Positions 19,762 to 55,291 of a stretch of DNA of 64,000 nucleotides are shown piece by piece; the stretch's first letter is position 1; each line of letters begins with the position of its first letter. The stretch is from an uncultured bacterium. GTDB taxonomy: Bacteria > Omnitrophota > Omnitrophia > Omnitrophales > Aquincolibacteriaceae. The notes under the pieces are model-generated. The model made no database searches, was not told the origin of the DNA, and was given only the letters and a program-made list of their open reading frames with translations. Location: NCBI GenBank assembly GCA_964606385.1, contig CAZSFZ010000009.1, forward strand, positions 5,762 to 69,761, read 5' to 3'. Position numbers and translations under genes: made by a program.

Positions 19762-19763
19762 GC

Positions 19764-33305: not shown

Positions 33306-34586
33306 ATGAAACAAAAGACTCTCAAAAACCGGGTTGTTTTTGAAGGTACGGGGCTCCATACCGGCCGTAAGGTGACGGTTTGCGTGCGCCCCGCCGCTGA
33401 GAACACCGGGATCCTTTTTTGCCGCGTCGATCTTGCCCCCGAGCTCAAGGTACGGGCCTCCATCGAGAACGTCTGTTCCGATGAAGCGCGCCAGACCGCG
33501 ATCAAGGTCGGCGAAGGCCGTGTCCGCACGATCGAGCACCTCATGGCCTCGTTCCACGGCCTGGGGGTCGATAACGCCCTGGTCGAGATCGACGGGGAAG
33601 AAGTCCCCGGGATGGACGGTAGCGCCCTCGAATTCACTAACGGCCTCATGACCGCCGGCCTCGAGGAGCAACATGCCGAGCGGCAGTTCCTGACGGTCCA
33701 GACGCCTGTCTATGTCGATCAGGGGGACCAATCGATCGTGATCCTGCCCGCGGAATCCTTCTCGGTCTCCTACATGCTCAATTACCGGGACGCGGACCTG
33801 CGGGACCAGTATCTGTCCCTGCCGATCCTTCCGGAGATCTTCGAGCGCGAGCTCGCGCCGGCCCGCACGTTCTGCCTCAAAAAAGAAGCCGAACTCCTTC
33901 TTTCGATGGGGTTCGGCAAAGGCGCGAATCCTTCCAACACGCTTATTTTTGAAAAGAACCAGCCGCTCCAGAATACGCTGCGGTTTGAGAACGAAGCCTG
34001 CCGCCACAAGATGATGGATATCCTGGGCGATCTTTTTCTGTGCGGCAAATTCATCCGTGGGCACGTGATCGCCTCCCGGAGCGGTCACGCCCTTAACGTC
34101 GAACTTGTGAGGAAATTAACGATGAGCACACCCGCCGAAACGAAACCCTTCTCCAAAACCCTGACCGTTGAAGATATCCAGAAGGTCATCCCGCACCGTT
34201 ATCCGTTCCTTTTTGTGGACCGGATCGAGAATTTTGAGCCGGGGACCCGGGCGACGGGTTTCAAGCAGGTCACCATGAATGATTATTTCTTCCAGGGGCA
34301 TTTCCCCGGACATCCCGTGATGCCGGGGGTCCTGATCGTGGAGGCCATGGCGCAGGTCGGCGGCGTGATCATGCTCGGAGAGCCCGAGAACCGCGGGAAG
34401 ATCGCTTATTTCATGAGCGTGGATCAGGTCAAGTGGCGCAGTCCCGTGCTTCCGGGAGACACGCTCCGGATGGAAGTTGAAGTCCTGAAGAAACGCGCGA
34501 AATTCGGCCAGTGTGCCGGCAAGGCTTATGTGGGAGATAAACTTGTATGCGAAGCGGATGTGAAGTTCGCCGTGGTGGATGCGTGA
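33306..34586 (+). CDS. lpxC/fabZ: Bifunctional UDP-3-O-acyl-GlcNAc deacetylase / beta-hydroxyacyl-ACP dehydratase (LpxC-FabZ fusion)
   Basis: N-terminal ~280 aa is LpxC ('GTGLHTGRKV', 'HLMASFHGLGVDN'). C-terminal ~145 aa is FabZ ('HRYPFLFVDRI', 'GHFPGHPVMPGVL'). Confidence 0.85.
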   Translation: MKQKTLKNRVVFEGTGLHTGRKVTVCVRPAAENTGILFCRVDLAPELKVRASIENVCSDEARQTAIKVGEGRVRTIEHLMASFHGLGVDNALVEIDGEEVPGMDGSALEFTNGLMTAGLEEQHAERQFLTVQTPVYVDQGDQSIVILPAESFSVSYMLNYRDADLRDQYLSLPILPEIFERELAPARTFCLKKEAELLLSMGFGKGANPSNTLIFEKNQPLQNTLRFENEACRHKMMDILGDLFLCGKFIRGHVIASRSGHALNVELVRKLTMSTPAETKPFSKTLTVEDIQKVIPHRYPFLFVDRIENFEPGTRATGFKQVTMNDYFFQGHFPGHPVMPGVLIVEAMAQVGGVIMLGEPENRGKIAYFMSVDQVKWRSPVLPGDTLRMEVEVLKKRAKFGQCAGKAYVGDKLVCEADVKFAVVDA

Positions 34587-35350
34587 TCCATCCGACGGCG
34601 ATCGTCCACCCGGACGCCGTTCTTGGTGAAGGCGTTGAGATCGGCCCCTGGTCGATCATTGAGGGGACGGTCAAGATCGGAGCGAGGACCAAGGTCGGTC
34701 CCCGCGTCACGATCGAAGGCCATACCACGATCGGGGAAGATAACGTCATCTTCACGGGTGCCATCGTCGGCAGTCTGACCCAGGACAAAAAAGCCGATGG
34801 GGGCGTGAGCTACCTCCGGATCGGCGACCGCAACACGATCCGCGAATACGCGACCCTGAACCCCGGCACGCTGAACGGCACCGAGACCGTGATCGGGAAC
34901 GATAACCTCCTGATGGCGTACGCGCATGTCGCGCATGACTGCATCATCCATAACGGGGCAACGCTTGCCAATAACGCGACGCTTGCGGGCCATGTGATCG
35001 TGGAGGACAAGGCGATCATCGGAGGCCTTTCCGCGGTCCATCAGTTCGTGCGGATCGGGAGCCTTTCGATCACGGGAGGCTGTTCCAAAGTCGTGCAGGA
35101 CATCCCTCCTTATATGATGGTGGACGGTCATCCGGCTACGGCGTTCGGGATCAATTCCGTCGGCCTGGACCGGGCGGGGTTCTCCAAAGAAGAAAAATCC
35201 GCCATCAAAAAAGCTTTCAAGATCATCTTCCGGTCCGGTCTGATCCTGAAGAACGTCATCAAACAGATCCAGCAAGACATTCCCCTCACTCCTTCCATCC
35301 AAACGATCCTGACATTCCTGGAAAAGTCCGAACGGGGCATTTGCGGCTAG
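34583..35350 (+). CDS. lpxA: Acyl-ACP--UDP-GlcNAc O-acyltransferase
   Basis: GTG start overlaps the fabZ stop (GTGA). 'IHPTAIVHPDAVLGEGVEIGP' hexapeptide repeats. Confidence 0.85.
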   Translation: MIHPTAIVHPDAVLGEGVEIGPWSIIEGTVKIGARTKVGPRVTIEGHTTIGEDNVIFTGAIVGSLTQDKKADGGVSYLRIGDRNTIREYATLNPGTLNGTETVIGNDNLLMAYAHVAHDCIIHNGATLANNATLAGHVIVEDKAIIGGLSAVHQFVRIGSLSITGGCSKVVQDIPPYMMVDGHPATAFGINSVGLDRAGFSKEEKSAIKKAFKIIFRSGLILKNVIKQIQQDIPLTPSIQTILTFLEKSERGICG

Positions 35351-35451
35351 GGCTTGCCCCGCGCCCGCGTGCCGCGGGACTGTTTCCGGCCGTCTAGCGC
35401 AAGGGATGAAGACGGTGCCCCTTTCTGGTATAATCCTGGCGAGGTGACTTT

Positions 35452-36267
35452 ATGAAGACCATGGGCATTATCGCGGGGAACGGCCGTTTTCCCATCCTGG
35501 TGGCCGAAGAGGCCAAAAAGACCGGGTACCGGGTCGTGACCTGCGGCATCGAGCAGGAAGCGGAACCCGTTCTGGAAAAGCTCTCGGACGCTTTTCTTTG
35601 GGTCAAGGTCGGCGAACTCAAGAAACTTTCAAAATTCCTGAAAGAGGAGGGCGCGCACGAGGCCATCATGGCCGGGAAGATCGAGAAGGTCCGTTTCTTT
35701 AAAGAGAACGTGCGGCTGGACCTCGACATGATGTCGGTCCTTGTGAAGCTGAAGGACCACAAGGACGACTCGCTCCTGGGCGGTATCGCGGACTATCTTT
35801 TCAAGAAGGGGATCGTCCTGCAGGACTCCACCTGTTTATTGAAAGACATGATGCCGGGGCCGGGGCTTCTCGGGAAACGGAAACCCTCCAAGGCCGTTAT
35901 GGATAATATCGATTTTGGTTTCGAAATGGCGCAGAAGGTCGCGGGCGCCGATATCGGGCAGACCGTGGTCGTGAAGAAAAAGGCAGTGCTCGCGGTCGAA
36001 GCGATCGAAGGGACCGACGAGGCCATCCGCCGCGGCGCGGCCCTCGGGAACGGCAAGATCGTGGTCGTGAAGATCGCCAAGCCGAACCAGGACATGCGCT
36101 TCGATGTGCCCGCGGTGGGGCTCAAGACCCTGGAAGGCCTCATCGCCGCCAAAGCCGAGGCCTTCGCCTTTGAGGCCCATAAGACCCTTTTCATCGGAAA
36201 GGATATTTTTGTCGAGAAGGCCAACCGAGCCGGCATCGTTCTCTACGGAGTCAGCGATCGCCCCTGA
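35452..36267 (+). CDS. lpxI: UDP-2,3-diacylglucosamine hydrolase LpxI (DUF1009)
   Basis: 271 aa. '[11 protein letters not shown]' start typical of LpxI. TATAAT -10 element upstream. Confidence 0.7.
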
Positions 36268-36278
36268 TCCCCGGACCT

Positions 36279-37862
36279 ATGAGCACCGAAAGATCAAAAC
36301 CCACCACAGGTCTTAAACGCGAGATCCAGGAACTCAGCGTCCTCTATGAGATTACGCGCCACATGACGGCGCCGTTCCCGATCGAGGAGAGGATGAGGAA
36401 AGCGCTCGACGTGCTCCATGAGAAGATGGACATGCACCGCGGCACCTTGACGCTTTTGGATCCCGACGGCGAGAGTCTGACGATCGAGATCGCCCACGGC
36501 CTTGATGATCAGGCCAAAAAAAAAGGGCGCTACAAGATCGGCGAGGGCATCACTGGGAAAGTCGTGGAAGCGGGGGAGCCGATCGCGGTACCGAACATCG
36601 GGGAAGAGCCGCTTTTCCTTAACCGGACCGGCGCGCGCAAGGACCTCCGGCGCAACCGGGTCGCTTTCATCTGCGTTCCCGTGAAAATCGACCAGGAGAC
36701 CATCGGCGCGCTCAGCGTGGACCGCCTTTTTGAAGGGGACGTTTCTTTGGAGGAGGACCTGAGGCTCCTCACCATCATCAGTTCGATCCTCGCGCAGACC
36801 GTCGCGAGTTACCGCCTTCGTGAAAAAGAGAAAGCGAAACTCCAGTTCGAGAATGTGGAGCTGAAGCGCGAACTCGCCAAAAAATTCCATCCGGCCAACA
36901 TCATCGGCAAGAGCAAGCGCATGGAAGAGGTCTACGAGGCGATCGACACCGTCAGCCGCACCCGTTCGACCGTGCTTTTGCGGGGCGAGACGGGGACCGG
37001 CAAGGAACTGGTGGCGCACGCAATCCACTATAATAGTCACCGGGCGAAAGGCCCGTTCATCAAAGTCTCCTGCGCCGCTTTGCCGGAAACGCTTCTTGAG
37101 AGCGAGCTTTTCGGGTACGAAAAGGGGGCGTTCACGGGGGCCGCGGCCAGAAAACTCGGGCGTTTTGAGATGGCCGACGGCGGCACGCTTTTCCTCGATG
37201 AGATCGGGGATATTTCCGCTTCGACCCAGATCAAGCTTCTGCGCGCGCTCCAGGAGCGTGAATTCGAACGGGTGGGCGGGACGGAGACGATCCGCATCGA
37301 CGTGCGCGTGATCGCGGCCACGAACCGGGACCTTGAAAAGGCGATCCAGGAAAAACAATTCCGGGAAGATCTCTATTACCGTCTGAACGTCGTGCCGATC
37401 CTTTTGCCGTCTCTGCGGGAAAGGCGGGAAGACATTCCTCTTTTGGTCTCTCATTTCCTCAAAAAAGCCGGGCTCGAGAACGGCAAGAAAGTAAAGTATG
37501 TCTCCGACGCGGCCATGGAATACCTGATGAACTACAACTGGCCGGGGAATATCCGCGAGCTTGAGAACGCCGTGGAGCGGGCCGTGATCCATTGCAAGAC
37601 GGACACGCTCGAGGCCGATCTTTTCCCGATCCCGGGGCCCAAAGGGCATCCGGTCACGATCCAGCTCCAGGGGGCGCAGACCTTCCAAGGCATGCCTGAA
37701 GAGATCTCCGGAGACCTTCCAAGCGCGGTCGAAGAGCTTGAAAAGAAAATGATCCGGGAGGCTTTTCAGCGGACAGGCGGGAACCAGCGCAAAGCGGCCA
37801 GGATCCTCGGGGTGACCGAACGAATCCTCGGCTATAAGGCCAAGCTCTACAAACTTAAATAA
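36279..37862 (+). CDS. GAF-domain sigma-54-dependent transcriptional activator (NifA-like enhancer-binding protein)
   Basis: N-terminal GAF domain. AAA+ domain with 'GESGTGKE'-type Walker A ('[11 protein letters not shown]') and 'GAFTGA' motif. C-terminal Fis-type HTH. Confidence 0.85.
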
Positions 37863-37913
37863 GTCTACAATTTTGTAGACTTTAATTACCTTCTTGTATA
37901 CAAATTTGTATAC
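37863..37913. promoter_or_regulatory. Two palindromic upstream activator sequences (candidate EBP binding sites)
   Basis: GTCTACAATTTTGTAGAC (perfect 8-2-8) and TTGTATACAA-ATTTGTATAC, 50-100 bp upstream of the sigma-54 promoter. Confidence 0.4.
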
Positions 37914-37963
37914 TCGAGACACCTGTCAGCGTATAATCCCTCAGTAACCTTTAATTTTCGAGT

Positions 37964-37979
37964 TGGCACGGAACTTGCA
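37964..37979 (+). promoter_or_regulatory. Sigma-54 (-24/-12) promoter of glnN
   Basis: TGGCAC-ggaac-TTGCA, an exact match to TGGCAC-N5-TTGCW, ~30 nt before the ATG. Confidence 0.65.
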
Positions 37980-38009
37980 TTTTCTATGTAAAACAAAGGG
38001 GAGGTTCGT

Positions 38010-40124
38010 ATGCACAAGCAGATCGATGTTACGGAAATCTTTGGAAGTAATGTTTTTAATGACCGGGTGATGAAGGAAAGGCTCCCGAAGGATACCTATA
38101 AAGCCCTGAAGAAAACGATCCAGGAAGGATTGCCGCTTTCTTTAGAGGTCGCTAATGTGGTCGCGAGCGCCATGAAGGACTGGGCGATCGAGAAGGGCGC
38201 GACGCATTACACGCACTGGTTCCAGCCTTTGACCGGCCGGACTGCGGAAAAACATGATTCTTTTATCGCGCCGACCGAAGACGGAAGCGTCATTATGGAG
38301 TTCTCCGGGAAGCAGTTGACTCAGGGGGAGCCGGACGCGTCCTCCTTCCCGAGCGGCGGCCTGCGTTCCACGTTCGAAGCGCGCGGCTATACGGCCTGGG
38401 ATTGTACTTCGCCGGCATTTCTCAAAACGGATGCCTCGAGTAACGTGACGCTTTGTATCCCGACGGCCTTCTGCTCCTATACGAGCGAAGCCCTGGATAA
38501 GAAGACGCCGCTTCTCCGTTCTATGGAAGCCGTCTCAAAACAGGCGGTCCGCGTGCTGAGGGCCTTGGGTAACAAGACCGTGAAACGGGTGACCTCCACC
38601 GTGGGGCCCGAACAGGAATACTTTCTGATCGACAAATCGTGCTACGAGAAGCGTCTCGACCTCATCGTTTCCGGTCGGGCCCTTTTTGGTGCGCCGGCTC
38701 CCAAAGGACAGGAGTTGGAGGACCAATATTTTGGCGCGATCAAGGACCGTATTGCTGATTTCATGCGGGACCTTGATATCGAGCTTTGGAAGATGGGGAT
38801 CTCATCCAAAACGAAACACAACGAAGTGGCTCCCGCGCAGTATGAAATGGCGCCGATCTTTTCGACGACCAACATCGCGGCGGACCATAACCAGCTGGTG
38901 ATGGAGACCATGCAGAAAGTGGCGCTGCGCCACAATCTCGTGTGCCTGCTCCATGAAAAACCGTTCGCGGGAGTGAACGGTTCCGGCAAGCATAACAACT
39001 GGTCGCTTTCGACCGACGACGGGCAGAACCTGCTCGAGCCGGGGAGAACGCCCTCCGAGAACGAGCAGTTCCTGATCTTCGTGAGCGCGATGATCATGGC
39101 GGTGGACCGCCACGCGGCGAAACTGCGCGCGAGCTGCGGCAATCCCGGGAACGACCTCCGCCTCGGCGCGAACGAAGCGCCGCCGGCCATCATCTCGATC
39201 TTCATGGGGGATGAGTTCACGGAGATCCTGCAGGGGATCGCGAGCGGCAAGAAGGTCGCGAGCCGCGGCCAGCATTTCCTCCAGATCGGCGTGGATTCGC
39301 TGCCGCAGCTTCCGAAGGACAACACGGACCGGAACCGGACCTCACCGTTCGCGTTTACCGGCAACAAGTTCGAATTCCGCATGGTCGGGTCCTCGGCGTC
39401 CATTTCGGGGCCTAACATCGTGATCAACGTGATCGCGGCGGAAGCCCTGGATGAGATCGCGACGCGTCTCGAAAAGGCCGGGAAGGCCAACCTGCACAAG
39501 GAAGCGCAGGCGATCGTGCGCGACGCGATGAAAAAGCACGGCCGGGTTATTTTTAACGGCAATAACTATTCCGACGAGTGGGTCGCTGAAGCCAAGAAAC
39601 GCGGCCTGCCGAACGTCAGGACGGGCGTTGAAGCGCTCGCCTCGATGGCGTCTCCGGAAGCGGTCAAGCTTTTCGAAAAGTACAAAGTGCTTTCCAAGGA
39701 AGAACTGCACGCCCGCTACGAGATCTACCTCGAGATCTACGTCAAGCACGTGAATATCGAGGCTCAGGCGGCGGTCCAGATGGTGAAGCGGCAGTACCTC
39801 CCCGCGGTGATCAAGTTCACGAAAGACCTCGCCAAGACCGTCTCGGAGCTCAAAGCGGCCGGGGCGCCTTTCAAGGTCCAGAAGGAACTCCTCACGAAGG
39901 TCAGCGCCCTTTTGGAATCGGCGAATGAAAAGCTGGAAGTTCTCGAGTCTTCCATCGAGAAGGCGCACGCCGTGGCGGATATCGCCAAGCGCGCCGAAGC
40001 GTTTCGCGATAAAGTATTCGTCGCCATGAGCGCTTTGCGTAAGGACATCGACGCGTTGGAAGGCCTTGTCTCGGCGAATCTCTGGCCGGTCCCGACCTAC
40101 GCCGAAATGCTCTTCAAGCTTTAA
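38010..40124 (+). CDS. glnN: Glutamine synthetase type III
   Basis: 704 aa. '[35 protein letters not shown]' matches the GSIII N-terminus. Confidence 0.85.
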
Positions 40125-40263
40125 GGCGCGATTTATAGCGCACTTATCCTGAGCAAGCCCGAAGGGCGCGTCGAAGGATATACTTCGACTCCTTCGCCAA
40201 AGGCTTAGTCGCTCAGGATGATTAGGATTGGCAATGGCCAATCCTAAACAATCAGGGCAAGGC

Positions 40264-40305
40264 AGGCGGGTTCTCTCATCTCCTGGGAGACCCGCCTTTT
40301 TATTT
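40264..40305 (+). terminator. Rho-independent terminator downstream of glnN
   Basis: ggcgggttctc / gagacccgcc stem with a T-run (ttttatttttc). Confidence 0.5.
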
Positions 40306-40375
40306 TTCAGGCAGCGAAGTTCCCCCGCAATTCCCCACAAAATATTTTTAATTAATTTTTTCATTCCTTTGAAGT

Positions 40376-40391
40376 TGGCACGCGTCTTGCA
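40376..40391 (+). promoter_or_regulatory. Sigma-54 (-24/-12) promoter of amtB-glnK
   Basis: TGGCAC-gcgtc-TTGCA, ~95 nt upstream of the amtB ATG. Confidence 0.6.
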
Positions 40392-40488
40392 CATCCCATG
40401 GGTGTAGAACAAAACAGTGTTTGATAAGTTTCGTGATGACAAAAGTGTCGGACAAATTTGTAAGTGGATCAAAAAGGAGGATCGCACA

Positions 40489-41817
40489 ATGAGAAAAGCA
40501 ACAAAGTGGTTTTTGGGAAGCGCGGGGTTTTTAATGCTCATGGGGATCTCGGGGTTGGCGCTGGCCGCGGACGCGGCCGCTCCGGTCATTAATGCCGGGG
40601 ATACGGCCTGGGTCCTTATTTCGGCGGGGCTGGTCTTTTTAATGACGCCGGGGCTTGCGTTCTTTTATGGAGGCCTGGTCCGTAAAAAGAACATGCTCTC
40701 GATCCTCATGCAATGTTTCATGCTGATGTGCATCATGACGCTTCAATGGGTCGTGATCGGGTACAGCCTTTCGTTCGGTCCGGACATCAAGGGGATGATC
40801 GGGAGTCTGAGCTGGGCGGGCCTCCACGGCGTAGGTCTGGAGCCTTTCGCGGATTATTCGGCGACGATCCCGCATCAGGCGTTCATGATCTTTCAGGCGA
40901 TGTTCGCCATCATCACGCCGGGCCTCATCCTGGGAGCTTTCGCGGAGCGCATGAAATTCTCGGCGTTCGTGGTCTTCTCGCTCCTTTGGGCTACGCTGGT
41001 CTATGATCCGGTCTGCCATTGGGTGTGGGCTGTGGGCGGTTTTCTCCGTAACTCGGGTGCGTTGGACTTCGCGGGCGGCACGGTGGTGCATATCAATGCC
41101 GGTATCGCGGCGCTCGTTTGCGCGATCGTCCTGGGAAAAAGGAAAGGGTATCCCAAGCACATGTCGCCCCCGCACAATCTTCCTTTTGCTGTGCTCGGGG
41201 CCGGGCTTCTCTGGTTCGGATGGTTCGGGTTTAACGGCGGGAGCGCCCTTGCGGCTAACGGCCTTGGCGTGAGCGCTTTTGTGGTGACGCATATCGCCGC
41301 GGCGGCGGCCGGACTGACCTGGTCGCTCATTGAATGGAAGATCAACTCCAAACCGACGATGCTCGGGATGATCACGGGCGCGGTGGGTGGCTTGGTCGCG
41401 ATCACGCCGGCGGCGGGATTCGTGGGGCCCATCGACGCGATATGGATCGGCGTCGGGGTTTCCGTGATCTGCTATTTCTTTGTGGCGATCGTAAAGAACA
41501 AATTCGGCTATGACGATTCGCTGGACGCGTTCGGCGTGCACGGGATCGGCGGCATCTGGGGCGCGCTGGCGACGGGTCTCTGGGCCTCCAAGGCGGTGAA
41601 TCCGGCCGGCAATGACGGCCTCTTTTACGGCAATCCGGGGCTTCTCTGGATCCAGCTGAAGGCCGTGATCGTTACGATCGTTTATTCGTTCATCGTTTCT
41701 TTCGTGCTTCTCAAGATCGTCGACGCCTTGATGGGGCTTCGCGTGACCGAGGATGAAGAGCGCATCGGGCTTGACCTGACGCAGCACCGCGAGTCCGCTT
41801 ACACCATCATTGACTAA
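40489..41817 (+). CDS. amtB: Ammonium transporter
   Basis: Signal peptide plus 11 TM. AAGGAGG RBS before the ATG at 40489. The ORF-track GTG extension at 40417 is rejected. Confidence 0.85.
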   Translation: MRKATKWFLGSAGFLMLMGISGLALAADAAAPVINAGDTAWVLISAGLVFLMTPGLAFFYGGLVRKKNMLSILMQCFMLMCIMTLQWVVIGYSLSFGPDIKGMIGSLSWAGLHGVGLEPFADYSATIPHQAFMIFQAMFAIITPGLILGAFAERMKFSAFVVFSLLWATLVYDPVCHWVWAVGGFLRNSGALDFAGGTVVHINAGIAALVCAIVLGKRKGYPKHMSPPHNLPFAVLGAGLLWFGWFGFNGGSALAANGLGVSAFVVTHIAAAAAGLTWSLIEWKINSKPTMLGMITGAVGGLVAITPAAGFVGPIDAIWIGVGVSVICYFFVAIVKNKFGYDDSLDAFGVHGIGGIWGALATGLWASKAVNPAGNDGLFYGNPGLLWIQLKAVIVTIVYSFIVSFVLLKIVDALMGLRVTEDEERIGLDLTQHRESAYTIID

Positions 41818-41839
41818 TAAAACTCAAAGGAGGTAGGTC

Positions 41840-42181
41840 ATGAAATACGTTATCGCAGTGATCCAGCCGGACCGGGTGGATGAGGTCCTCCGGATCCTTG
41901 AAGAAAAAGAGATCCATCTCGTGACGGTCACGAACGTGATGGGCCGCGGGCGGCAGAAGGGGATCTCGGAGGTCTACCGCGGGCATAAGGAGGCGGGACG
42001 GCTTCTCCGGAAGGTGAAGCTCGAGATCGCCGTGAACGAAGCGTTCGTGAAAGCGACCGTCGACGCGATCAAGGAAGGCGCCCGGACCGGCCATGTCGGA
42101 GACGGGAAGATCTTCGTGGTCGATCTTAAAGAATGTTATCGCATCCGTACCGGTGAGATCGGCGAAGTGGCGATCGGATGA
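41840..42181 (+). CDS. glnK: Nitrogen regulatory protein P-II
   Basis: T-loop 'GRGRQKGISEVYRGHKEAG' with Tyr51 (Y in VYRG). 'GDGKIFV'. Confidence 0.85.
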   Translation: MKYVIAVIQPDRVDEVLRILEEKEIHLVTVTNVMGRGRQKGISEVYRGHKEAGRLLRKVKLEIAVNEAFVKATVDAIKEGARTGHVGDGKIFVVDLKECYRIRTGEIGEVAIG

Positions 42182-42221
42182 TCGCCCTTTACCGGAAAAT
42201 CAAGCGACAAAGGAGAAAAAC

Positions 42222-43562
42222 ATGGACAGGATCTTGAGGAACGTTTGGATTTTAAGCCTGATCGGAATGTGTCTGACGCCGGGAGCGGCTTTTGCGGCAG
42301 ACGATAGCGGGGAAGTGGCGGCGCTCAAGGCGCAGATCGACGCGCTGAGCCGCAAGCTCGAGGCCATGGACAGCAAAATGATGACCATGGAAAAGCCGGC
42401 GCCGGGAGCCCAGACGACTTATATTCCTCCCGCCGAGGAGTCCAAGGGGGGATTTCTCCGTACCGCCATGTCGGACATCCAAATGGGCGGTTATGTGGAA
42501 GCCCAGTTCAACAATAAGGTCGATCAACCCCAGCAGAACGGGAACGTGGGCCGTTCGCTGAGCGATAAATCCGCGGATACTTTCTCCCTGCCGGGAGCCA
42601 AGCTCTGGTTCGAGAAGCTCGCGAATCCCGAAGGCGGCGCCGGGTTCCGCATCGACATGATGATGGGAAGCGACACACGCTATTTCTTCAACAATTTCCA
42701 GAACGATAATCTGGGGACTTCGAATGGCGGAAGCAGCGGAAACACCGCTTTCGCGTTCGAACAAGCCTATGTGCAACTTGTCGCCCCGCTGGGTTTCTGG
42801 TCCAGCAGCGAGGTTCTCCCGCACACTATGGACATCAAGGCGGGCCGTATGACCACGCTTGCGGGGAATGAAGTGATCGAGGGGCCGTTCAACTGGAACA
42901 TCAGCCGTTCGGCGTCCTTCGGTTACGCGCTTCCGTTCACGCATACCGGCGTGCGGGCGAGCTACGCGCTTTTCAATAACTACCTGACCATGTATCACGG
43001 TATCAATAACGGTTGGGACAACGATATCGACAACAATTCGTACAAGACCTTCGAAAACGCGTTCAGCTTCAGTCCGTTCAAGAACACCAAATGGACCACG
43101 GCGACCTATTTCGGGCCCGAGAACAACAACGCGAGTGGCGGAAAGCGTTTTCTTGTCACGAACGTCGCCAGTTGGGACGCCACTTCGAAGCTCTCGTTCG
43201 TCGGGGAATTCGATATGGGCAACCAGCCCCGCGTGGATATCGCCATGGACGACAATTTCCACACGGCGCAGTGGTTCGACTACGCGGCGTATGCCAAGTA
43301 CAAATTCACGGACAAATGGGCCGCGGCGTACCGTTTCGAATACTTCGATGACAGCCAACGTTACCGCAATTGGACGGGGGCCGGCACGGCCGGAGCCCAG
43401 AGGGATCTGGCGAATACCCTGACGCTTGAGTACAAGCCGTGGGAGAACGTGATCGCCCGGGCGGAGTATCGGATCGATTACGCGCACGCCGGCGACGGGA
43501 ACGTTTTCGGCGGCAAAAATCAGCAGAATACTTTTGGAGCTCAGCTCAGCTACCTTTTTTAA
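42222..43562 (+). CDS. Outer-membrane porin-like protein with an N-terminal coiled coil
   Basis: Signal peptide. 'AALKAQIDALSRKLEAM' coiled coil. Alternating amphipathic beta strands. C-terminal '...AQLSYLF' aromatic end. Confidence 0.5.
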   Translation: MDRILRNVWILSLIGMCLTPGAAFAADDSGEVAALKAQIDALSRKLEAMDSKMMTMEKPAPGAQTTYIPPAEESKGGFLRTAMSDIQMGGYVEAQFNNKVDQPQQNGNVGRSLSDKSADTFSLPGAKLWFEKLANPEGGAGFRIDMMMGSDTRYFFNNFQNDNLGTSNGGSSGNTAFAFEQAYVQLVAPLGFWSSSEVLPHTMDIKAGRMTTLAGNEVIEGPFNWNISRSASFGYALPFTHTGVRASYALFNNYLTMYHGINNGWDNDIDNNSYKTFENAFSFSPFKNTKWTTATYFGPENNNASGGKRFLVTNVASWDATSKLSFVGEFDMGNQPRVDIAMDDNFHTAQWFDYAAYAKYKFTDKWAAAYRFEYFDDSQRYRNWTGAGTAGAQRDLANTLTLEYKPWENVIARAEYRIDYAHAGDGNVFGGKNQQNTFGAQLSYLF

Positions 43563-43657
43563 GACGGGTATCTCTGAGAGGCCGGGAGGCGTTAAGTGCC
43601 CGGTCTCTCAGGAGTTACGTATCTCCATCCCGGCCCAGATCGCCTCCCCTGGTGATT

Positions 43658-43713
43658 GCCCCGGCCCCTCCCTTATCGTTAAGGGAAGCCGGGGCGGGGC
43701 CGGGACTTTTTTT
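43658..43713 (+). terminator. Imperfect GC-rich hairpin plus T-run after the porin gene
   Basis: gccccggcccctccctt...aagggaagccggggcggggc, then ttttttt. Confidence 0.4.
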
Positions 43714-43787
43714 CAATTTCGGAGCTCCGGGGGCCTTCCGATCGTGCATATCCATTGCTGGACAGTTCTCAAAAGGTGAAGTATTCT

Positions 43788-44978
43788 ATGCGCCAACGTA
43801 AAGGCTGTTTGGCCGGTTATCAAAGCCCACTGATTGACTTACCCCCAGTAGAAATCGTGAAAAAAGCGATACTAGCGCTCGAGGATGGTGTGTGGTTCGA
43901 AGGCGAAGGTTTTGGCGCCGACGGTGAAGCATTCGGGGAAGTCGTCTTCAATACGGGGTTGAGCGGGTACCAGGAGATCTTGACCGATCCTTCCTACAAA
44001 GGCCAGATGGTCTGCATGACCTACCCTCATATCGGCAATTACGGCATTAACGCCGCGGATGTCGAATCTTCCAGGCCCTGGGTCGAAGGATTTATCGTCA
44101 AAGAGGTCAGCCCGATCGTGAGCAATTACCGCTCCGAGATGACGCTCGACCAATACCTCAAACAATATAATATCCTCGGCATCCAGGGGATCGATACCCG
44201 CAAACTTGTGAAGCACCTCCGGACCGTGGGCGCGAAGAAAGCCGTCATTTCCACGCTGGAACAGGATCCCCAAAAACTTGTCCAAAAGGCCAAAAGGTCC
44301 CCGAGCATTGTCGGCGTGGACCTCGTCAAGGAAGTGACCTGCCCGAAGCCGTACGTTTTCGAAGAAACGATGCCGTCGGAGTTCGCGTGGGGCGCCGCCC
44401 AGAAAAGAAGGTTCAAGGTCGTCGCGGTGGATAGCGGTGTCAAATACAACATCCTGCGCAAGCTCAACCAGCACGGTTTCAACGTCCAGGTCGTTCCGGC
44501 CAGCGCGACCGCGGAAGAGATCCTGGCCTATAAACCGGACGGCGTTTTCCTCGCGAACGGTCCCGGCGATCCCGCGGCGGTGCAGTACCTTGTCACCGCG
44601 GTCCGCAAACTGATCGGCAAAGTCCCGATGTTCGGGATCTGTCTCGGTCACCAGATGATCGGACAGGCCCTTGGCGGCAAGACCTCCAAACTCAAGTTCG
44701 GCCACCACGGCAACAACCATCCGGTGATGGACCTGAAGACGCGAAAGATCGAGATCACCTCGCAGAACCACAACTTTGTCGTGAATATCGACACGCTTCC
44801 GAAAGGGGATGTCGAGATCACGCATGTCAATTTGAACGATAAAACGCTCGAAGGCCTGCAGCACAAGAAACACCCGCTTTTCAGCGTCCAGTACCACCCG
44901 GAAAACGCTCCCGGGCCGCATGACAGTGATTATCTTTTTACCCGTTTTTATGAACTGATCAGTCAACACGTAAGTTAA
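43788..44978 (+). CDS. carA: Carbamoyl-phosphate synthase small (glutaminase) subunit
   Basis: 'GICLGHQ' GATase motif. 396 aa from the ATG at 43788. Confidence 0.85.
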
Positions 44979-44997: not shown

Positions 44998-47900
44998 ATG
45001 CCAAAACGCAACGACATTAATAAGATCCTGATCATCGGATCGGGGCCGATCATTATCGGCCAGGCCTGCGAGTTCGATTATTCCGGGACCCAGGCTTGTA
45101 AAGCGCTCCGCAAAGAAGGGTACGAGATCGTGCTCGTCAATTCCAATCCCGCGACGATCATGACGGATCCGGAAATGGCGGACCAGACCTATATCGAACC
45201 ATTGACCCTGGAGAGCCTTGAGAAGATCATTGCCAAGGAACGGCCGGACGCGCTTCTTCCCAATCTGGGCGGTCAGACGGGGCTCAATCTCTCTTCTGCG
45301 CTTTATAAAAACGGCATTCTCGAAAAATACGGCGTTCAGATCATCGGGGTGAAGGCGGACGCCATCGAACGGGGTGAGGACCGTGAGGTTTTCAAGGCCA
45401 CCATGGCCCAGCTCGGGATCCCGGTGCCTCAATCGGCGACGGCCAATACCGTCGAAGAATGCGAAGCGATCGCCCAGAAGATCGGTTACCCGGTCGTGAT
45501 CCGTCCCGCGTATACAATGGGCGGAACGGGCGGCGGGATCGCCTATAACGTGGAAGACCTGCGGGTGATCGCGCTCCGGGGGCTTACGGTGAGTATTGCC
45601 CGCCAGGTGCTGATCGAAGAAGCAGTGATCGGATGGGAAGAGCTGGAACTCGAGGTCGTCCGCGACGCGAAGAACCAGAAGATCACGGTATGTTTTATCG
45701 AGAACGTGGACGCGATGGGCGTGCACACCGGGGACAGTTTTTGCGTGGCGCCGATGCTCACGGTCGCGCCCGAGCTCCAGAAAAAGCTCCAGGAATATTC
45801 TTATAAGATCGTCGACGCGATCGGTGTGGTCGGAGGCACGAACATCCAGTTCGCGCACAATAAAAAAGACGGCCGCGTGGTGGTGATCGAGATCAATCCG
45901 CGCACGTCCCGTTCGTCCGCGCTCGCTTCGAAAGCGACGGGGTTTCCGATCGCGATGGTGTCAACGCGTCTTGCGGCCGGTCTCACGATGGATGAGATCC
46001 CTTACTGGCGGGATGGGTCGCTTGAGAAATACACGCCGAGCGGGGAGTACGTGGTCGTGAAATTCGCCCGTTGGGCGTTTGAAAAGTTCCCCAAGGCCCA
46101 GGATGTTTTGGGAACGCAGATGAAAGCTGTCGGCGAGGTCATGTCCATCGGCAAGAATTTCAAGGAGGCTTTTCAGAAGGCCATCCGGTCTCTCGAGATC
46201 GGCCGCTACGGCCTCGGTGGGGCCAAAGATTTCAAGCAGCTGACCGTCGAACAGCTCCGGGGTCGCCTGGCGCATGCTTCCAGCGAACGGATCTTCCTCA
46301 TGTATGAAGCCCTTCGGAAGGGTTTCTCCGTCGAAGAGCTTTACCGCATGACCCACATCGGGCTGTGGTTCATCCAGGAAATGAAGGACCTCGTGACGTT
46401 CGAGGAAGAGATTATCCAGAATCCTTGGGACAAATTCACGGACAAGGACCTCGTGAAGGCCAAGGAATGGGGTTTTTCGGACCGGTACCTTGCGGGGCTT
46501 TTCGGGGTTTCGGAGACGGCGGTGCGTGAACGCCGCATCCGCCTCGGCAAGATCGCCCGGTATGAGGCCGTTCCTGTGAGCGGCGTGGAAAACGCGGCGT
46601 ATTATTACTCCACCTATCACGTGGGTAAGGAAGATGTGGCGGTTTCCAGGAATAAAAAGATCCTGATCCTGGGCGGCGGGCCGAACCGGATCGGGCAGGG
46701 GATTGAATTCGATTACACCTGCGTGCACGCGGTGATGGCGCTCCGCGCGGCCGGTTATGAATCGATCATGATCAACTGTAACCCCGAAACGGTATCGACC
46801 GACTACGATACGGCGAACAAGCTTTATTTTGAGCCCCTGACGGTGGAGGACGTTCTGACGATCTATGAAAAAGAAAAACCGGACGGCGTGATCGTCCAGT
46901 TCGGCGGACAAACGCCTCTCAATATCGCCAGGCAGCTTAAAGACGCGGGTGTGAAGATCCTGGGGACCACCCCGGAAAGCATCGCGTTCGCGGAAGACCG
47001 CGAACTTTTCCGCGAAAAAATGATCGAGCTCGGCATCCCGCAGCCCGAAAGCGGCATCGCGCGTTCGTTGGAAGAGGCGCTTGGGATCGCGGAGCGGATC
47101 GGCTATCCCCTCATGGTCCGTCCTTCTTTCGTGCTCGGCGGCCGCGGCATGGAGATCATTTACGATGAGGCCATGCTGAGAAAATACGCGGTGGAAGCCA
47201 TCAAGGTGAGCCCGGAGCATCCGATGCTGATCGACCGGTTCCTGGATAAGGCGCTTGAATGCGAAGTGGACGCCCTTTCCGACGGGACCGACGCTTTTGT
47301 CACGACGGTCATGGAACACATTGAATGGGCCGGGGTGCATTCGGGGGATTCGGCCTGCTCCATCCCGAGCCGGACGATCTCCAAAGAGCATCTGAAGCAG
47401 ATCGAGGACTACACGGCCAAGATCGCCAAGGCGCTCAGCGTCGTGGGCCTCATCAATGTCCAATACGCGATCTGCGACGGTAAGGTCTATATCCTGGAAG
47501 CGAACCCCCGCGCCTCGCGCACGGTGCCGATCGTTTCCAAAGTGACGGGAGTTCCGATCGCGCGCATCGCGACCGAAATGATGCTCGGCAAAAAGATCGG
47601 TGATTTCCCGCAGCTCAAGAATGTCAAAGCGCGGTTTTTCGGCGTGAAAGAAGCCGTGTTCCCCTTCAACATGTTCCCCGAAGTCGATCCGATCCTGGGT
47701 CCCGAAATGCGGGCGACGGGAGAAGTGATGGGGGTGGGGGATAATTTCGGCGCGGCGTTCTACAAGGCGCAGGAAGCCACGGGCGCGAAGCTTCCGCTGG
47801 AAGGGAATGCTCTTTTAACGGTGGCGGGTAAGGACAAGGAGATGCTGCCGCCTATCGCGAAAAAACTGATCTCGCTCGGTTTCAAGATCTTCGCGACGGA

Positions 47901-48219
47901 GAAGACCAGCGCGTTCCTGACGGCGCAAAAGATCGAGAACACCTTCATTAAAAAGATCCATGAAGGGCAGCCGAATATCGCGGACGCGATCAAGAACGGC
48001 GAACTGCAGCTGATCATCAACACGCCGGAAGGACGCGGCAGCCAGGTGGACGACAGCTACATCCGCATGATGGCGATCCAGCGCAAGCTGCCGTACGTGA
48101 CCTCCATCGCGGCGGCGGAAGCGACCGTGGAAGGCATCACCGCGGCGAAAAAAGACAAGATCACGCCCAAATCCCTTCAGGATTATTACGGCGTCAAGAA
48201 ACAGATGGTGGCGGTTTAA
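44998..48219 (+). CDS. carB: Carbamoyl-phosphate synthase large subunit, copy 1
   Basis: Two ATP-grasp halves ('[21 protein letters not shown]' / '[24 protein letters not shown]') plus MGS-like C-terminus. 1073 aa. Confidence 0.9.
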   Translation: MPKRNDINKILIIGSGPIIIGQACEFDYSGTQACKALRKEGYEIVLVNSNPATIMTDPEMADQTYIEPLTLESLEKIIAKERPDALLPNLGGQTGLNLSSALYKNGILEKYGVQIIGVKADAIERGEDREVFKATMAQLGIPVPQSATANTVEECEAIAQKIGYPVVIRPAYTMGGTGGGIAYNVEDLRVIALRGLTVSIARQVLIEEAVIGWEELELEVVRDAKNQKITVCFIENVDAMGVHTGDSFCVAPMLTVAPELQKKLQEYSYKIVDAIGVVGGTNIQFAHNKKDGRVVVIEINPRTSRSSALASKATGFPIAMVSTRLAAGLTMDEIPYWRDGSLEKYTPSGEYVVVKFARWAFEKFPKAQDVLGTQMKAVGEVMSIGKNFKEAFQKAIRSLEIGRYGLGGAKDFKQLTVEQLRGRLAHASSERIFLMYEALRKGFSVEELYRMTHIGLWFIQEMKDLVTFEEEIIQNPWDKFTDKDLVKAKEWGFSDRYLAGLFGVSETAVRERRIRLGKIARYEAVPVSGVENAAYYYSTYHVGKEDVAVSRNKKILILGGGPNRIGQGIEFDYTCVHAVMALRAAGYESIMINCNPETVSTDYDTANKLYFEPLTVEDVLTIYEKEKPDGVIVQFGGQTPLNIARQLKDAGVKILGTTPESIAFAEDRELFREKMIELGIPQPESGIARSLEEALGIAERIGYPLMVRPSFVLGGRGMEIIYDEAMLRKYAVEAIKVSPEHPMLIDRFLDKALECEVDALSDGTDAFVTTVMEHIEWAGVHSGDSACSIPSRTISKEHLKQIEDYTAKIAKALSVVGLINVQYAICDGKVYILEANPRASRTVPIVSKVTGVPIARIATEMMLGKKIGDFPQLKNVKARFFGVKEAVFPFNMFPEVDPILGPEMRATGEVMGVGDNFGAAFYKAQEATGAKLPLEGNALLTVAGKDKEMLPPIAKKLISLGFKIFATEKTSAFLTAQKIENTFIKKIHEGQPNIADAIKNGELQLIINTPEGRGSQVDDSYIRMMAIQRKLPYVTSIAAAEATVEGITAAKKDKITPKSLQDYYGVKKQMVAV

Positions 48220-48252: not shown

Positions 48253-51200
48253 ATGGCGAAACGAACGGACATCAAGAAGATCCTTATCATCGGTTCCGGC
48301 CCGATCATCATCGGTCAGGCCTGCGAATTCGATTATTCCGGCGCCCAGGCTGTGAAAGCCCTGAAAGAGGAGGGCTATAAGGTCGTCCTGATCAATTCCA
48401 ACCCCGCGACGATCATGACCGATCCGGAGCTCGCGGACGCGACCTATATCGAGCCGCTGACCGTGGAATTCCTCGAGAAGGTCATCATGAAGGAAAAGCC
48501 CGACGCGGTCCTGCCGACCATGGGTGGACAAACGGGGCTGAACCTCGCGGTCGAGGCCTTTGAGGCAGGTGTGTTCAAACGTCATAACGTTGAGATGATC
48601 GGCGCGAAATACGAAGCGATCAAAAAAGCCGAGAACCGGGAAGAATTCAAGCGCGCGATGCAGAAGATCGGCCTGGACCTTCCCAAAAGCGATTTCGCGT
48701 ATTCGCTGGAGGAGGCCGAAAAGGTCGCCGAAAAGATCGGTTATCCGGTGATCGTCCGCGCGAGTTTCACGCTCGGCGGTTCCGGAAGCGGTGTTTGCCA
48801 TAATGTCGAGGAGCTCCGGGCTACGGCCCGTACAGGACTCGACTACAGCCGGGTCCACGAGATCCTGATCGAGGAATCGATCGTCGGGTGGAAGGAATAC
48901 GAGCTCGAGGTCATGCGGGACAAGAATGATAATTTCGTTGTGATCTGCTCGATCGAGAACCTGGACCCGATGGGGATCCATACGGGTGATTCCATTACCG
49001 TGGCGCCCGCACAGACCCTGACGGACCGGGAATACCAGCGGATGCGCGACGCCGCCCGCAAGGTTATGTCCGAGATCGGGATCGAGACCGGCGGTTCGAA
49101 CGTCCAGTTCGCGGTCGATCCCAAAAACGGGCGCATGGTCATCATTGAAATGAACCCGCGCGTTTCCCGGTCTTCGGCCCTGGCATCCAAAGCCACGGGA
49201 TTTCCCATCGCGAAATTCGCGGCCAAACTCGCGGTCGGCCTCACGCTTGATGAGATCCCGAACGATATCACGAAGTACACGCCCGCCTCCTTCGAACCCT
49301 CGATCGACTATTGCGTGGTCAAGATCCCGCGTTTTGCTTTTGAGAAATTCGAAGGGGTGGATGACCGTCTGACCACCCAGATGAAATCCGTGGGGGAGGT
49401 GATGTCGATCGGCCGCACTTTTAAGGAATCTTTCCAGAAAGGCCTGCGTTCGCTCGAGACCAAGCGGTTCGGTTTCGGCGGGGACGGCAAAGATAAGGTT
49501 TTCGACCTTGAGCTTAAGACTCGCGCGGCGTACGTGAAATTCCTGCATCAGGCCCCGAATGATGGGGAGCTCCGCAAAAAGATCTTCGAACATGTCAAGA
49601 TCCCGCGCGACGGACGGGTCTTCTATCTGAAATACGCGTTCCTCGCGGGGTTCACCCTGGAGGAGATCTACAAACAGACAGGCGTTGATCCCTGGTTTCT
49701 CGCCCAGCTCAAGCAGATCATCGATCTCGAAAAAGAGCTTCTGGACGCGCGGGGGGACGAAAAGGAGCGGAAGTCCCTGCTCCGCAAGGCCAAGCAGTAC
49801 GGATTTTCGGATGTCCAGCTCGCCTTCTTCTGGGGCATGCGACAGCCCGAGGTAAGAAAGCTCCGGAAAAAAATCGGGATCAAACCGGTTTACAAACTGG
49901 TGGATACCTGCGCCGCCGAATTCAAGGCCTATACCCCTTATTTTTATTCGACCTATGAGGATGAAGACGAAGCGAACCCCAGCCGCAAAAAGAAGGTCAT
50001 GATCCTGGGCGGCGGGCCGAACCGGATCGGACAGGGGATCGAGTTCGATTACTGCTGCGTGCACGCGGTGTTCGCGCTCAAAAAAATGGGTTATGAGACC
50101 ATCATGGTCAACTCGAACCCCGAAACGGTCTCAACCGATTACGACACGTCCGACAAGCTTTTCTTCGAGCCGCTCACGCTGGAAGACGTGCTCAATATCT
50201 ATGAGAATGAAAAACCGGTCGGAGTGATCCTGCAGTTGGGCGGGCAGACCCCTCTTAACCTTGCGAAATCCCTTCTGGCGAACGGCGTCAGGATCCTCGG
50301 CACTTCTGTGGACGCGATCGATCGCGCGGAAGACCGGGACCGGTTCAAGAAGCTCCTTAAAAAGATCGGTCTCCGTCAGCCCGCGAATGGGATCGCGACC
50401 AGCCTCGAAGAAGCCCAGCAGATCGCTAAAGAGATCGGCTATCCCGTGGTGATCCGGCCGTCCTACGTGCTCGGCGGGCGCGCGATGGAGATCGTCTATG
50501 ACCAGACCTCGCTCAAGAAATACATGAAGACCGCTGTCGAGGCGAGCGATGACCAGCCTATTCTGATCGATAAATTCCTTGAGGATGCGACCGAAATGGA
50601 CGTGGACCTTATTTCGGACGGGAAGACAGCCGTTGTGGGCTCGGTGATGGAACATATTGAAGAGGCCGGCATCCATTCGGGCGACAGCGCGTCCGTGATC
50701 CCTCCCTTTTCTGTTTCTCGTGAGATCGTCGAAGAGATCGTCCAAAAGACCAAACAGATCGCCAAGGAACTGCATGTCGTGGGCCTCATGAACGTCCAGT
50801 ACGCGATCCAGAAGGACCAGGTCTATTGCCTGGAGGTGAATCCGCGCGCTTCCCGGACCGTGCCTTTCGTGAGCAAAACGATCGGGGTGCCGCTCGCGAA
50901 GCTCGCGGCCCAGCTCATGGTCGGGAAAACCTTAAAAGATCTCAAATTCACCGAAGAGATCATCCCGAAACACGTCGCGGTGAAAGAATCCGTGTTCCCG
51001 TTCGTGAAATTTCCGGGCGTGGACATCATCCTGTCCCCCGAAATGAAATCCACCGGGGAAGTGATGGGGATCGATAAGGATTTCGGGAAGGCTTTCTATA
51101 AATCGCAGGATGCGGCGATGTCCCATATCCCGCGCAAAGGCACGGTTTTTATCAGCGTCAAGGATACCGACAAACCGAAGATCGCCGAGGTCGCGAGGGA

Positions 51201-51543
51201 TTTCCACCGGCTTGGTTTCAAGGTCGTTTCGACCAAAGGCACCGCGCAGGTCCTGAGGGATTACCGGGTTCCCGTCCAGGAGATCCTGAAGATCACCGAG
51301 GGAAGCCCCCACATCGGGGACTGGGTCAAAACCAAGAAGATGGATCTCATTATCAACACGCCGAGCGGCAAGGGCCCCATGCTGGACGAGGGCAAGATCC
51401 GTTCACTCGCGGTCTCTTTCAATATTCCCTGCATCACGACCTTGAGCGCCGCGCGCGCCGCGATCCGGGGACTTCAGGCTGTCAAGGACGATGACCTGGA
51501 TGTGCGGTCGATCCAGGATTATCAGGGGATGAATAGCAAATAA
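48253..51543 (+). CDS. carB: Carbamoyl-phosphate synthase large subunit, copy 2 (diverged paralog)
   Basis: Full length, 1096 aa. Both ATP-grasp halves and the MGS domain are intact. Roughly 60% identity to copy 1 by eye. Confidence 0.9.
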
Positions 51544-54913: not shown

Positions 54914-55291
54914 ATGCAGAGAATCGCTAAGATATTCACCACTTTTTTTGTTTTGTTCGCCTTCGTTTGTCCTTTGATGGCCGGGGAGGTGGCACCGGAA
55001 GCGGACATTCAAAATAACGGGACGTTTATGCGTAAAGCCCAGCGCGGGTTCCTCAATATCGCGCTCTCTCCTTTTGAGATCTCCAACGAACTTGCCAAAG
55101 AGGTCCGGAAAGACACCCTGCCGCCGAGTTGGATCGCCGGAGCGGGCCGCGGCGCTTTCTACATGGTGGGACGTGCTTTGGTGGGCGTGTATGAGCTGGT
55201 GACTTTTCCGATCCCTTATCCCGCGAATTATCAGCCGATCCTTAAGCCCGAATTTCCCTGGGAACTCGCCGAGAATAAACCGAATTTCTAA
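54914..55291 (+). CDS. Small secreted protein, TIGR04073-like (exosortase-system-associated family)
   Basis: Signal peptide. 'RGFLNIALSPFEI...GAGRGAFYMVGRALVGVYELVTFPIPYPANYQPILKPEF' resembles the family's R.GxxN...E....G...G..R..VGVYE.VTFP.P motif (from memory). Confidence 0.4.
   Translation: MQRIAKIFTTFFVLFAFVCPLMAGEVAPEADIQNNGTFMRKAQRGFLNIALSPFEISNELAKEVRKDTLPPSWIAGAGRGAFYMVGRALVGVYELVTFPIPYPANYQPILKPEFPWELAENKPNF

Follow-up and report, generated by a model that had tools for sequence, protein, structure and literature searches.

We analysed a 64,000-nucleotide stretch of DNA (contig CAZSFZ010000009.1; hereafter the window, or the 64 kb) from an uncultured bacterium of the phylum Omnitrophota, in which the gene of a sigma-54-dependent activator is followed by genes of ammonium assimilation. 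The gene order on the plus strand is lpxC/fabZ, lpxA, lpxI, activator, glnN, amtB, glnK (encoding a P-II protein) and a gene for an OmpL-like porin (Table 1). Sigma-54 promoters precede glnN and amtB, two palindromes lie between the activator gene and glnN, and a single related site lies in the amtB leader. Judged from these elements and their conservation, the locus is probably an ammonium-assimilation regulon, in which a NifA-family activator would act on TACA-N4-TGTA sites and sigma-54 promoters. The activator is likely to be a NifA-family protein that works like NtrC, as a general nitrogen-assimilation switch.

A NifA-family activator beside nitrogen-assimilation genes

The activator was initially annotated as carrying a GAF sensor instead of a receiver domain and as NifA-like rather than NtrC-like, and domain searches agreed with this. 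Pfam matches comprised GAF (residues 35-175), Sigma54_activat (208-374; PF00158, 1.3e-74), an AAA lid and HTH_8 (484-521); no Response_reg match was obtained in the protein, and no kinase gene adjoins. The GAFTGA loop is intact within 'EKGAFTGAA' and is invariant or nearly so across 37 orthologues, and an AAA+ Sigma54_activat domain with this loop identifies the protein as a bacterial enhancer-binding protein. The NtrC model TIGR01818 aligned with residues 193-518 only and scored 358 against a cut-off of 559, which leaves the activator outside that family. The NCBIfam nifA model TIGR01817 gave 544.4 bits, narrowly above its cut-off of 528.85. The best solved relative over the full length was A. 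vinelandii NifA (9qq6_C, 1e-115), and that of the GAF domain was Aquifex Nlh1 (4g3k, 1e-23). The closest relatives (81-87% identity) belong to Candidatus Omnitrophota, and their public records are named NifA.

These names and the score above the equivalog cut-off would suit a genuine nif-specific NifA with nitrogenase targets elsewhere and an incidental glnN/amtB neighbourhood, as would the paired sites before nifH-nifI1-nifI2 in one unrelated metagenome locus (L157, see below). We nevertheless regard such a protein as very improbable here. No nif gene was found in the 64 kb or in 11 orthologous loci of about 13-22 kb each (L083-L089 and L210-L213, fetched by exact-protein look-ups); the neighbours are glnN, glnA or amtB-glnK, and throughout the phylum the activator stays linked to glutamine synthetase and/or amtB-glnK. 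The classical NifA site TGT-N10-ACA was not found in 37863-37963 or 40125-40376, although it is plain in the positive control L015, an alphaproteobacterial nifA locus with two tandem copies upstream of each sigma-54 promoter and none of the TACA-N4-TGTA-type sites. The recognition helix is likewise unlike that of classical NifA: it reads TERILGYK in the window protein, GMTPRQIAYR in A. vinelandii NifA and GITPRQIGYA in L015, and the NifA-type pattern GxTPRQ(V/I/M)(A/G)Y does not occur in the window activator. In a quick, unbootstrapped neighbour-joining tree, the Omnitrophota activators formed a clade of their own, activators with a 'TERI' helix a second one, and classical NifA together with proteins like the Desulfovibrionales regulator DVU1949 a third. 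DVU1949-like proteins have the helix TPRQMGYR; one of them (L010) has the same architecture as the window activator and about 43% identity to it. Neither a NifL partner gene nor a Cys-rich interdomain linker is present at the window activator. Because the architecture and score of NifA are found but linkage to nif genes, TGT-N10-ACA sites and the TPRQxxY helix are not, we filed the activator as a NifA-family protein and not as nif-specific NifA.

Paired palindromes and a sigma-54 promoter precede glnN

The initial annotation had placed TGGCAC-N5-TTGCA promoters about 30 nt before glnN and about 95 nt before amtB. Both were located, the first ending 30 nt ahead of the glnN ATG at 38010 and the second 97 nt ahead of amtB. 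Exact matches to TGGCAC-N5-TTGC in the 64 kb numbered two, those before glnN and amtB, with 0.03 expected and 0 of 100 shuffled sequences reaching two; both promoters also satisfy the longer consensus TGGCACG-N4-TTGCA. Transcription was taken to start about 12 nt past the GC element, which for glnN gives a start near 37990. A simple scan found no sigma-70 promoter upstream of glnN.

The distal palindrome begins immediately after the activator stop codon, and the proximal one is a perfect 18-bp palindrome that extends back to 37894 with a preceding TT. Their centres are 33 bp apart and lie at about -118 (distal) and -86 (proximal) from the inferred glnN start, which are normal enhancer positions. 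No further palindrome match with two or fewer mismatches was found in the 64 kb, and even at three or fewer only 0.51 matches were expected. The palindromes had also been described as unlike NtrC or NifA sites, which their TACA-N4-TGTA core and the lack of TGT-N10-ACA upstream of either promoter bear out.

The arrangement is conserved. The activator orthologues of the 11 loci share 63-82% protein identity, and all 11 lie directly after lpxI, often overlapping its stop codon; in the window the activator gene starts 11 nt past that stop. A conserved block (rpsF-ssb-rpsR-rplI-dnaB-bamA-ompH-lpx) surrounds them, and downstream of the activator every locus has a nitrogen cassette of variable content, then lpxB. 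Cassette contents vary among glnN, glnA, one to three amtB-glnK pairs, glnE and porin. Every glnN-type locus (L083-L086 and L210-L212) has a TACAA-N2-TTGTA-type palindrome pair past the activator stop codon and then a -24/-12 promoter. Wherever an intergenic spacer exists, the paired sites stand at -84 ± 2 and -113 ± 3 together with such a promoter; in five lineages (the window, L083, L084, L210 and L211) the site centres range from -82 to -86 and from -112 to -118. When the activator-glnN spacers of six lineages were aligned, only the site pair, the -24/-12 elements and the ribosome-binding site were conserved, TGG.CA...TTGC being invariant. Equivalent sites lie upstream of the amtB sigma-54 promoter in L087 and L213.

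The position of the first palindrome, right after a stop codon, together with a hairpin reported there on the minus strand by a terminator scan, would allow it to be the terminator of the lpx-activator operon, the second then being a chance AT-rich palindrome. This is scarcely credible, as the stem has only three G-C pairs and no proper plus-strand T-run, and the second site outscores the first. The TACA/TGTA core is invariant while outer positions vary without complementarity, which is conservation of the protein-site type, and the pair recurs upstream of nitrogen genes with no gene end nearby.

Two minor observations concern the same spacer. In L086 (about 11720) the glnN -24 element is TGCCAT, with GG lost and both palindromes intact, which could reflect promoter decay or a sequencing error. 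An integration host factor (IHF) site or second promoter is not claimed for the block GTATAATCC...CAGTAA between the site pair and the promoter, which occurs only in the window, in L084 and partly in L083.

The sites match the motif predicted for the DVU1949 regulon

Kazakov et al. (2015; PMC4641369) reconstructed sigma-54 regulons of Desulfovibrionales computationally and assigned amtB-P-II-glnD, glnN, glnA and other operons to the single-component regulator DVU1949, with predicted 16-mers including TATACAATTTTGTAAC and TCTACATTTTTGTAAG (supplementary file 4). We built a symmetric matrix solely from the 93 published DVU1949 sites and scanned 64,000 window positions with it. The proximal palindrome scored 19.1 bits, rank 1 of 64,000 and above the training median; the distal palindrome (13.2 bits) ranked third and the amtB leader site (12.9 bits) fourth. 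First-order Markov simulation gave an expectation of 1.27 matches at 12.9 bits or more and 0.03 at 19 bits or more. The second-ranked match (13022-13037) was set aside as chance, being the first codons of gatC without a TACA/TGTA core. Sites of the DVU1949 regulon type, TTnACA-wwww-TGTnAA with the promoters of glnN and amtB-P-II, are thus present in the window. The distinct recognition sequence proposed at the outset stands in so far as it differs from those of NtrC and classical NifA; it is not new, since it matches the motif predicted for the DVU1949 regulon. By its sequence, the finding is an example, from the poorly known phylum Omnitrophota, of a regulon type that comparative genomics had predicted before.

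Both systems have a single-component sigma-54 activator and sites of this kind; those predicted for DVU1949 frequently come in pairs, with a spacing of about 30-45 bp, and precede the sigma-54 promoters of amtB-P-II, glnN, glnA and glutamate synthase genes. The systems differ in phylum and in the recognition helix, and the identity of the window activator to the DVU1949-like L010 is about 43%; the Omnitrophota activator gene moreover sits in a lipid-A operon, and the leader-site arrangement of amtB is not described in PMC4641369.

A metagenome scan with the pattern TACAWWWWTGTA-N14-30-TACAWWWWTGTA returned at least 80 loci. Among the matches listed, 37 were TATATG-type simple repeats and 43 were others, 21 of which flank glnN, glnA, amtB, glnK, gltB, gdhA, nifH or a NifA-like activator; in most of these 21, a sigma-54-type promoter stands 45-200 bp away. 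Recurrence of the palindromes near other sigma-54 promoters, which the initial annotation had made a test of its proposal, was thus observed beside nitrogen genes across metagenomes. The order in L102 is activator, sites, amtB-glnK, like the window, and the sites of L141 and L147 occupy the space between a glnN and an activator gene that diverge. Adjacent activators end in ...ITERIIGLRV, ...LSERIIHYKI or ...TTERIIGYRI, which is the window-like 'TERIxGYK' helix type. A scan of a genome collection with the whole-activator alignment favoured generic AAA+ peptides (LFLDEIGD, YxWPGNxRE) and yielded L001-L015, which served as outgroups and, with L015, as the NifA control; no Omnitrophota were among the matches listed. 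Among these matches, high-scoring sites adjoin NifA-like activator genes on contigs labelled Deltaproteobacteria, Blastocatellia, Acidobacteriota, Desulfobulbus and Desulfovibrionaceae. Genes divergent from such activators are glnA (L005, L009), putA (L007) and that of an amino-acid binding protein (L010), and Acidobacteriota-type loci have a NifA-like activator beside glnA with the same sites between.

Three arrangements among the metagenome loci are recorded in their own right. L157 (2717-3840) carries paired TACA-N4-TGTA sites and the promoter TGGCATGGTCTGTGC before nifH, followed by two P-II-like genes (nifI1-nifI2); the activator family may control fixation where fixation exists. L105 (2925-3059) and L169 (894-1071) have one site pair common to divergent glnN and gltB, with a sigma-54 promoter on each side. 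L107 (3970-4160) has three sites before gdhA and no sigma-54 promoter, where repression could be at work.

The palindromes might instead be operators of a factor other than the activator, such as a global nitrogen repressor or a CRP/NtcA-like protein, with the activator reading another site or acting from solution. Two recognition-helix types (TPRQMGYR and TERILGYK) go with the same motif, and the gdhA of L107 has its three sites without a sigma-54 promoter. The pair at -84 and -113 nevertheless occupies typical enhancer positions and does not overlap the promoter, and the sites directly adjoin a NifA-like activator gene in at least 10 unrelated lineages. NtcA reads GTA-N8-TAC, TnrA/GlnR reads TGTNA-N7-TNACA and NtrC reads TGCACC-N5-GGTGCA. 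None of these consensuses fits the motif, so NtcA, TnrA/GlnR and NtrC were rejected as readers of the palindromes, and we consider another factor quite unlikely.

Reading by the NifA-family activator, which we prefer, invites a wider proposal that we advance tentatively, as possible but doubtful. In many anaerobes, among them Omnitrophota, Acidobacteriota-like, Thermodesulfobacteriota-like and other lineages, a phylum-spanning clade of proteins labelled 'nif-specific NifA' may serve as the master activator of ammonium assimilation, with ACA-N4-TGT sites and, at amtB, a single helically phased enhancer in the leader. NifA half-sites would then be read in the opposite arrangement, ACA-N4-TGT against TGT-N10-ACA. 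The automatic name is misleading at this locus, and counting such genes as evidence of nitrogen fixation in metagenomes would be an error. The TACA-N4-TGTA motif accompanies NifA-like activators and promoters of glnN, glnA, amtB, gltB, gdhA and nifH well outside Desulfovibrionales, and this spread makes it useful for regulon prediction in metagenome-assembled genomes. Literature searches found no follow-up on DVU1949, no paper on sigma-54 regulation in Omnitrophota and nothing on activators of glnN.

The amtB promoter has an activator-type site in its leader

An equivalent of the amtB promoter is kept in L083, L084, L210, L211 and L213. No recognisable activator site was found in the 250 bp upstream of it in the window, where the best matrix score was 4.8 bits. 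The initial picture of a sigma-54 module with palindromic upstream sites thus applies to glnN, with its conserved palindromes, but not to amtB, which has the leader site only. This site is centred at about +54, about 30 nt before the amtB start codon; ATG 40489 was chosen as the likely start, as the resulting 442 amino acids match the length of the orthologues. Of 10 Omnitrophota amtB promoters, 7 have the pattern [T/G]ACAAwwwTGT in their leader (outside the window at L084 ~14379; L210 ~12355 and ~14255; L211 ~12265 and ~14128; L213 ~9828), compared with 0 of 6 glnN promoters, and the background frequency of a matrix score of 9.5 or more is 3.9e-4 per position. The site centres lie 57.5, 69.5-70.5, 79.5-81.5 and 89.5 bp past the -24 GG, so that successive offsets differ by roughly one turn of the helix (a 10-11 bp period has a Rayleigh p of ~0.01, from n = 7 promoters that are partly paralogues and not independent). 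We propose with modest confidence that the leader site is a downstream, phase-dependent enhancer. If so, it would be a compact natural case of downstream activation at sigma-54 promoters.

Alternatively, amtB could be driven by the glnN sites 2.4 kb upstream or by a second, unseen activator, for example an NtrC-type response regulator encoded elsewhere, and the leader site would be a brake, at which the bound inactive activator blocks or attenuates amtB transcription under plentiful nitrogen. NtrC-type enhancers can work over kilobases, and sites that overlap transcription units repress. A single dimer site is normally too little for assembly of an AAA+ ring, the conserved amtB sigma-54 promoter of L083 has no detectable site, and upstream sites do exist at L087, at amtB3 of L211 and at L213. 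The amtB operon of D. vulgaris was moreover assigned to two activators, DVU3220 and DVU1949 (PMC4641369). On the other hand, near most amtB promoters no activator-type element other than the leader site is conserved, and the helical register of this site is kept while the distance shifts by whole turns, which fits promoter contact better than a roadblock. A conserved terminator also lies between glnN and amtB. On balance we think this alternative, with a brake function or another activator at amtB, unlikely.

In a consensus fold of this terminator from five lineages, seven pairs were kept through changes on both sides, and the predicted structure separates glnN from the amtB transcription unit. 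The terminator stem and the preceding AGGGCAAGGC are unusually conserved over five lineages. The glnN-amtB spacer (40140-40307) also holds long hairpins resembling repetitive extragenic palindromic (REP) elements, CCTGAGC...GCTCAGG and GGATTGGC...GCCAATCC, which L210 shares almost unchanged and L084 has in duplicate. An Rfam search of 36000-44000 returned nothing above noise, which indicates no known glutamine riboswitch or leader RNA in that region.

Several points weigh against the proposed regulon. No rpoN gene was found among the genes of the 64-kb window, the only DNA searched for it. The spacing of the glnN site pair differs by lineage (28, 29, 30, 33 and 39 bp), and in L088 and L089 glnA directly adjoins the activator gene, leaving a promoter no space, so the circuit varies within the phylum. 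L083 lacks the leader site, L084 and L210 have only weak versions of it, and the promoters behind its phasing are related, as noted. The DVU1949 motif is itself a computational prediction. Observed directly are the sequence elements, together with how they are conserved, how far they exceed chance and how they associate with nitrogen genes and NifA-like activators; the link between activator and site rests on comparative genomics, for all members with the motif, and identical specificity is not self-evident given the helices TPRQMGYR in DVU1949-like proteins and TERILGYK in the window.

A putative circuit and its relation to known systems

In the circuit that we propose, the activator would be made constitutively as the last gene of the lpxC/fabZ-lpxA-lpxI operon, co-transcribed with lpxI. 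As the gene sits in this operon without sites upstream of itself, it is probably not autoregulated. A dimer of the Fis-type helix-turn-helix domain would bind the TACA-N4-TGTA palindromes, an assignment that comes from comparative genomics, and at glnN it would occupy the two sites near -86 and -118, roughly three helical turns apart. By analogy with related activators, the GAF domain would stop keeping the AAA+ domains inactive under nitrogen limitation; its signal could be 2-oxoglutarate, as for A. vinelandii NifA, or could involve P-II, as for other NifA proteins. The AAA+ ring would then assemble, loop to the sigma-54 holoenzyme at the -24/-12 promoter and open the promoter via its GAFTGA loops, and glnN would be transcribed to the conserved hairpin. 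The second sigma-54 promoter would drive amtB-glnK-porin, with the leader site at about +54 serving as a face-of-helix-dependent enhancer, which is the weakest step. The circuit offers a concrete, testable model of nitrogen assimilation for Omnitrophota, a phylum in which almost nothing is known of gene regulation.

The P-II protein of the window has Glu at position 51 instead of the Tyr that is uridylylated in enterobacteria, and it scored 94 bits against NCBIfam GlnB/GlnK cut-offs of 181-202. Lacking Tyr51, it is unlikely to take part in a uridylylation relay of the enterobacterial type.

The activator shares with classical NifA (A. vinelandii, Klebsiella, rhizobia) the GAF/AAA+/helix-turn-helix order, alignment over the full length, sigma-54 dependence and a GAF domain that is likely a nitrogen/carbon sensor. 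It differs in its ACA-N4-TGT sites and in having no nif genes, NifL gene or Cys-rich linker with it. The A. vinelandii GAF domain senses 2-oxoglutarate, although the binding residues are not defined in the report (PMC12998190).

Aquifex aeolicus Nlh1 and Nlh2 are comparable in that they are NifA-like activators, there in a non-diazotroph, and the Nlh1 GAF domain is the closest solved one. Nlh1 is said to bind about 100 bp upstream of glnBA, in work by Studholme et al. from 2000. It is regarded as a regulator of assimilation, not of fixation, and its GAF dimer and coiled-coil linker keep the AAA+ domains apart until ligand binds (PMC9866876); by analogy, release of such a lock could be how the window activator senses nitrogen status.

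The NtrB/NtrC system of Proteobacteria likewise combines a sigma-54 promoter with paired upstream enhancers before glutamine synthetase and amtB-glnK. In contrast, the window activator has no receiver domain and no adjoining kinase gene, sensing would be built into the activator, and the site is unrelated. Leptospira EbpA, which acts with RpoN, is a GAF-containing activator that was found by experiment to bind upstream of amtB; sigma-54 transcription of amtB and of two lipoprotein genes requires it, as does growth when nitrogen is low (review PMC12655853). Unlike the window activator, EbpA carries a pair of GAF domains, and it is classed as FhlA-like.

Feature coordinates and other observations in the window

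Table 1 Genes and regulatory elements of the activator-glnN-amtB region, in window coordinates
Feature	Position	Strand	Basis
Enhancer-binding protein gene, one-component, 527 amino acids	36279-37862	+	Pfam domains, TIGR01817
Distal activator-type palindrome GTCTACAATTTTGTAGAC, core TACAATTTTGTA at 37866-37877	37863-37880		Motif scan and conservation
Proximal activator-type palindrome GTATACAAATTTGTATAC, core at 37899-37910	37896-37913		Motif scan and conservation
glnN sigma-54 promoter TGGCACGGAACTTGCA, GG at 37965-66, GC at 37977-78	37964-37979	+	Exact consensus
glnN, type III glutamine synthetase, 704 amino acids	38010-40124	+	Pfam GSIII_N, Gln-synt_C, Gln-synt_C-ter
glnN predicted intrinsic terminator AGGCGGGTTCTCTC...GAGACCCGCC then TTTTTATTTTT	40264-40307	+	Sequence and consensus fold
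amtB-glnK-porin sigma-54 promoter TGGCACGCGTCTTGCA	40376-40391	+	Exact consensus
amtB leader, single activator-type site CGGACAAATTTGTAAG, core at 40451-40462	40449-40464		Matrix score
amtB, ammonium transporter, 442 amino acids from ATG 40489	40489-41817	+	Pfam Ammonium_transp, TIGR00836
glnK/P-II signal protein, 113 amino acids	41840-42181	+	Pfam P-II
OmpL-like beta-barrel porin (BBP2)	42222-43562	+	Pfam BBP2; own start and ribosome-binding site

The porin gene lies 40 nt after glnK, has the same placement in L083 and L084, and follows glnN in L212; as its position is kept in related loci, the amtB operon probably ends with this gene. Its product may form a channel in the outer membrane that is regulated together with ammonium uptake.

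The lipid-A cluster of the window is split between 33306-36267 (lpxC/fabZ-lpxA-lpxI) and 55288-56421 (lpxB), with the activator and nitrogen cassette inserted between. The cassette additionally holds carA, two carB genes and the gene of a PEP-utilising enzyme. The carB genes, which encode the carbamoyl-phosphate synthase large subunit, are both full length and stand in tandem after carA (44998-48219 and 48253-51543), with 71-79% DNA identity along repeated stretches.

Elsewhere in the window, hairpins with GGAACG/CGTTCC heptad repeats occur at 11068-11130, 15907-15953, 17034-17066, 19763-19830 and 57682-57735, mostly at gene ends or starts and with one copy inside gatB; the family resembles a REP or terminator element specific to this genome. 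An 817-residue fusion protein is encoded on the minus strand at 3503-5956, and it joins pyridine-nucleotide disulfide reductase, rhodanese, TusA and DsrE-like domains.

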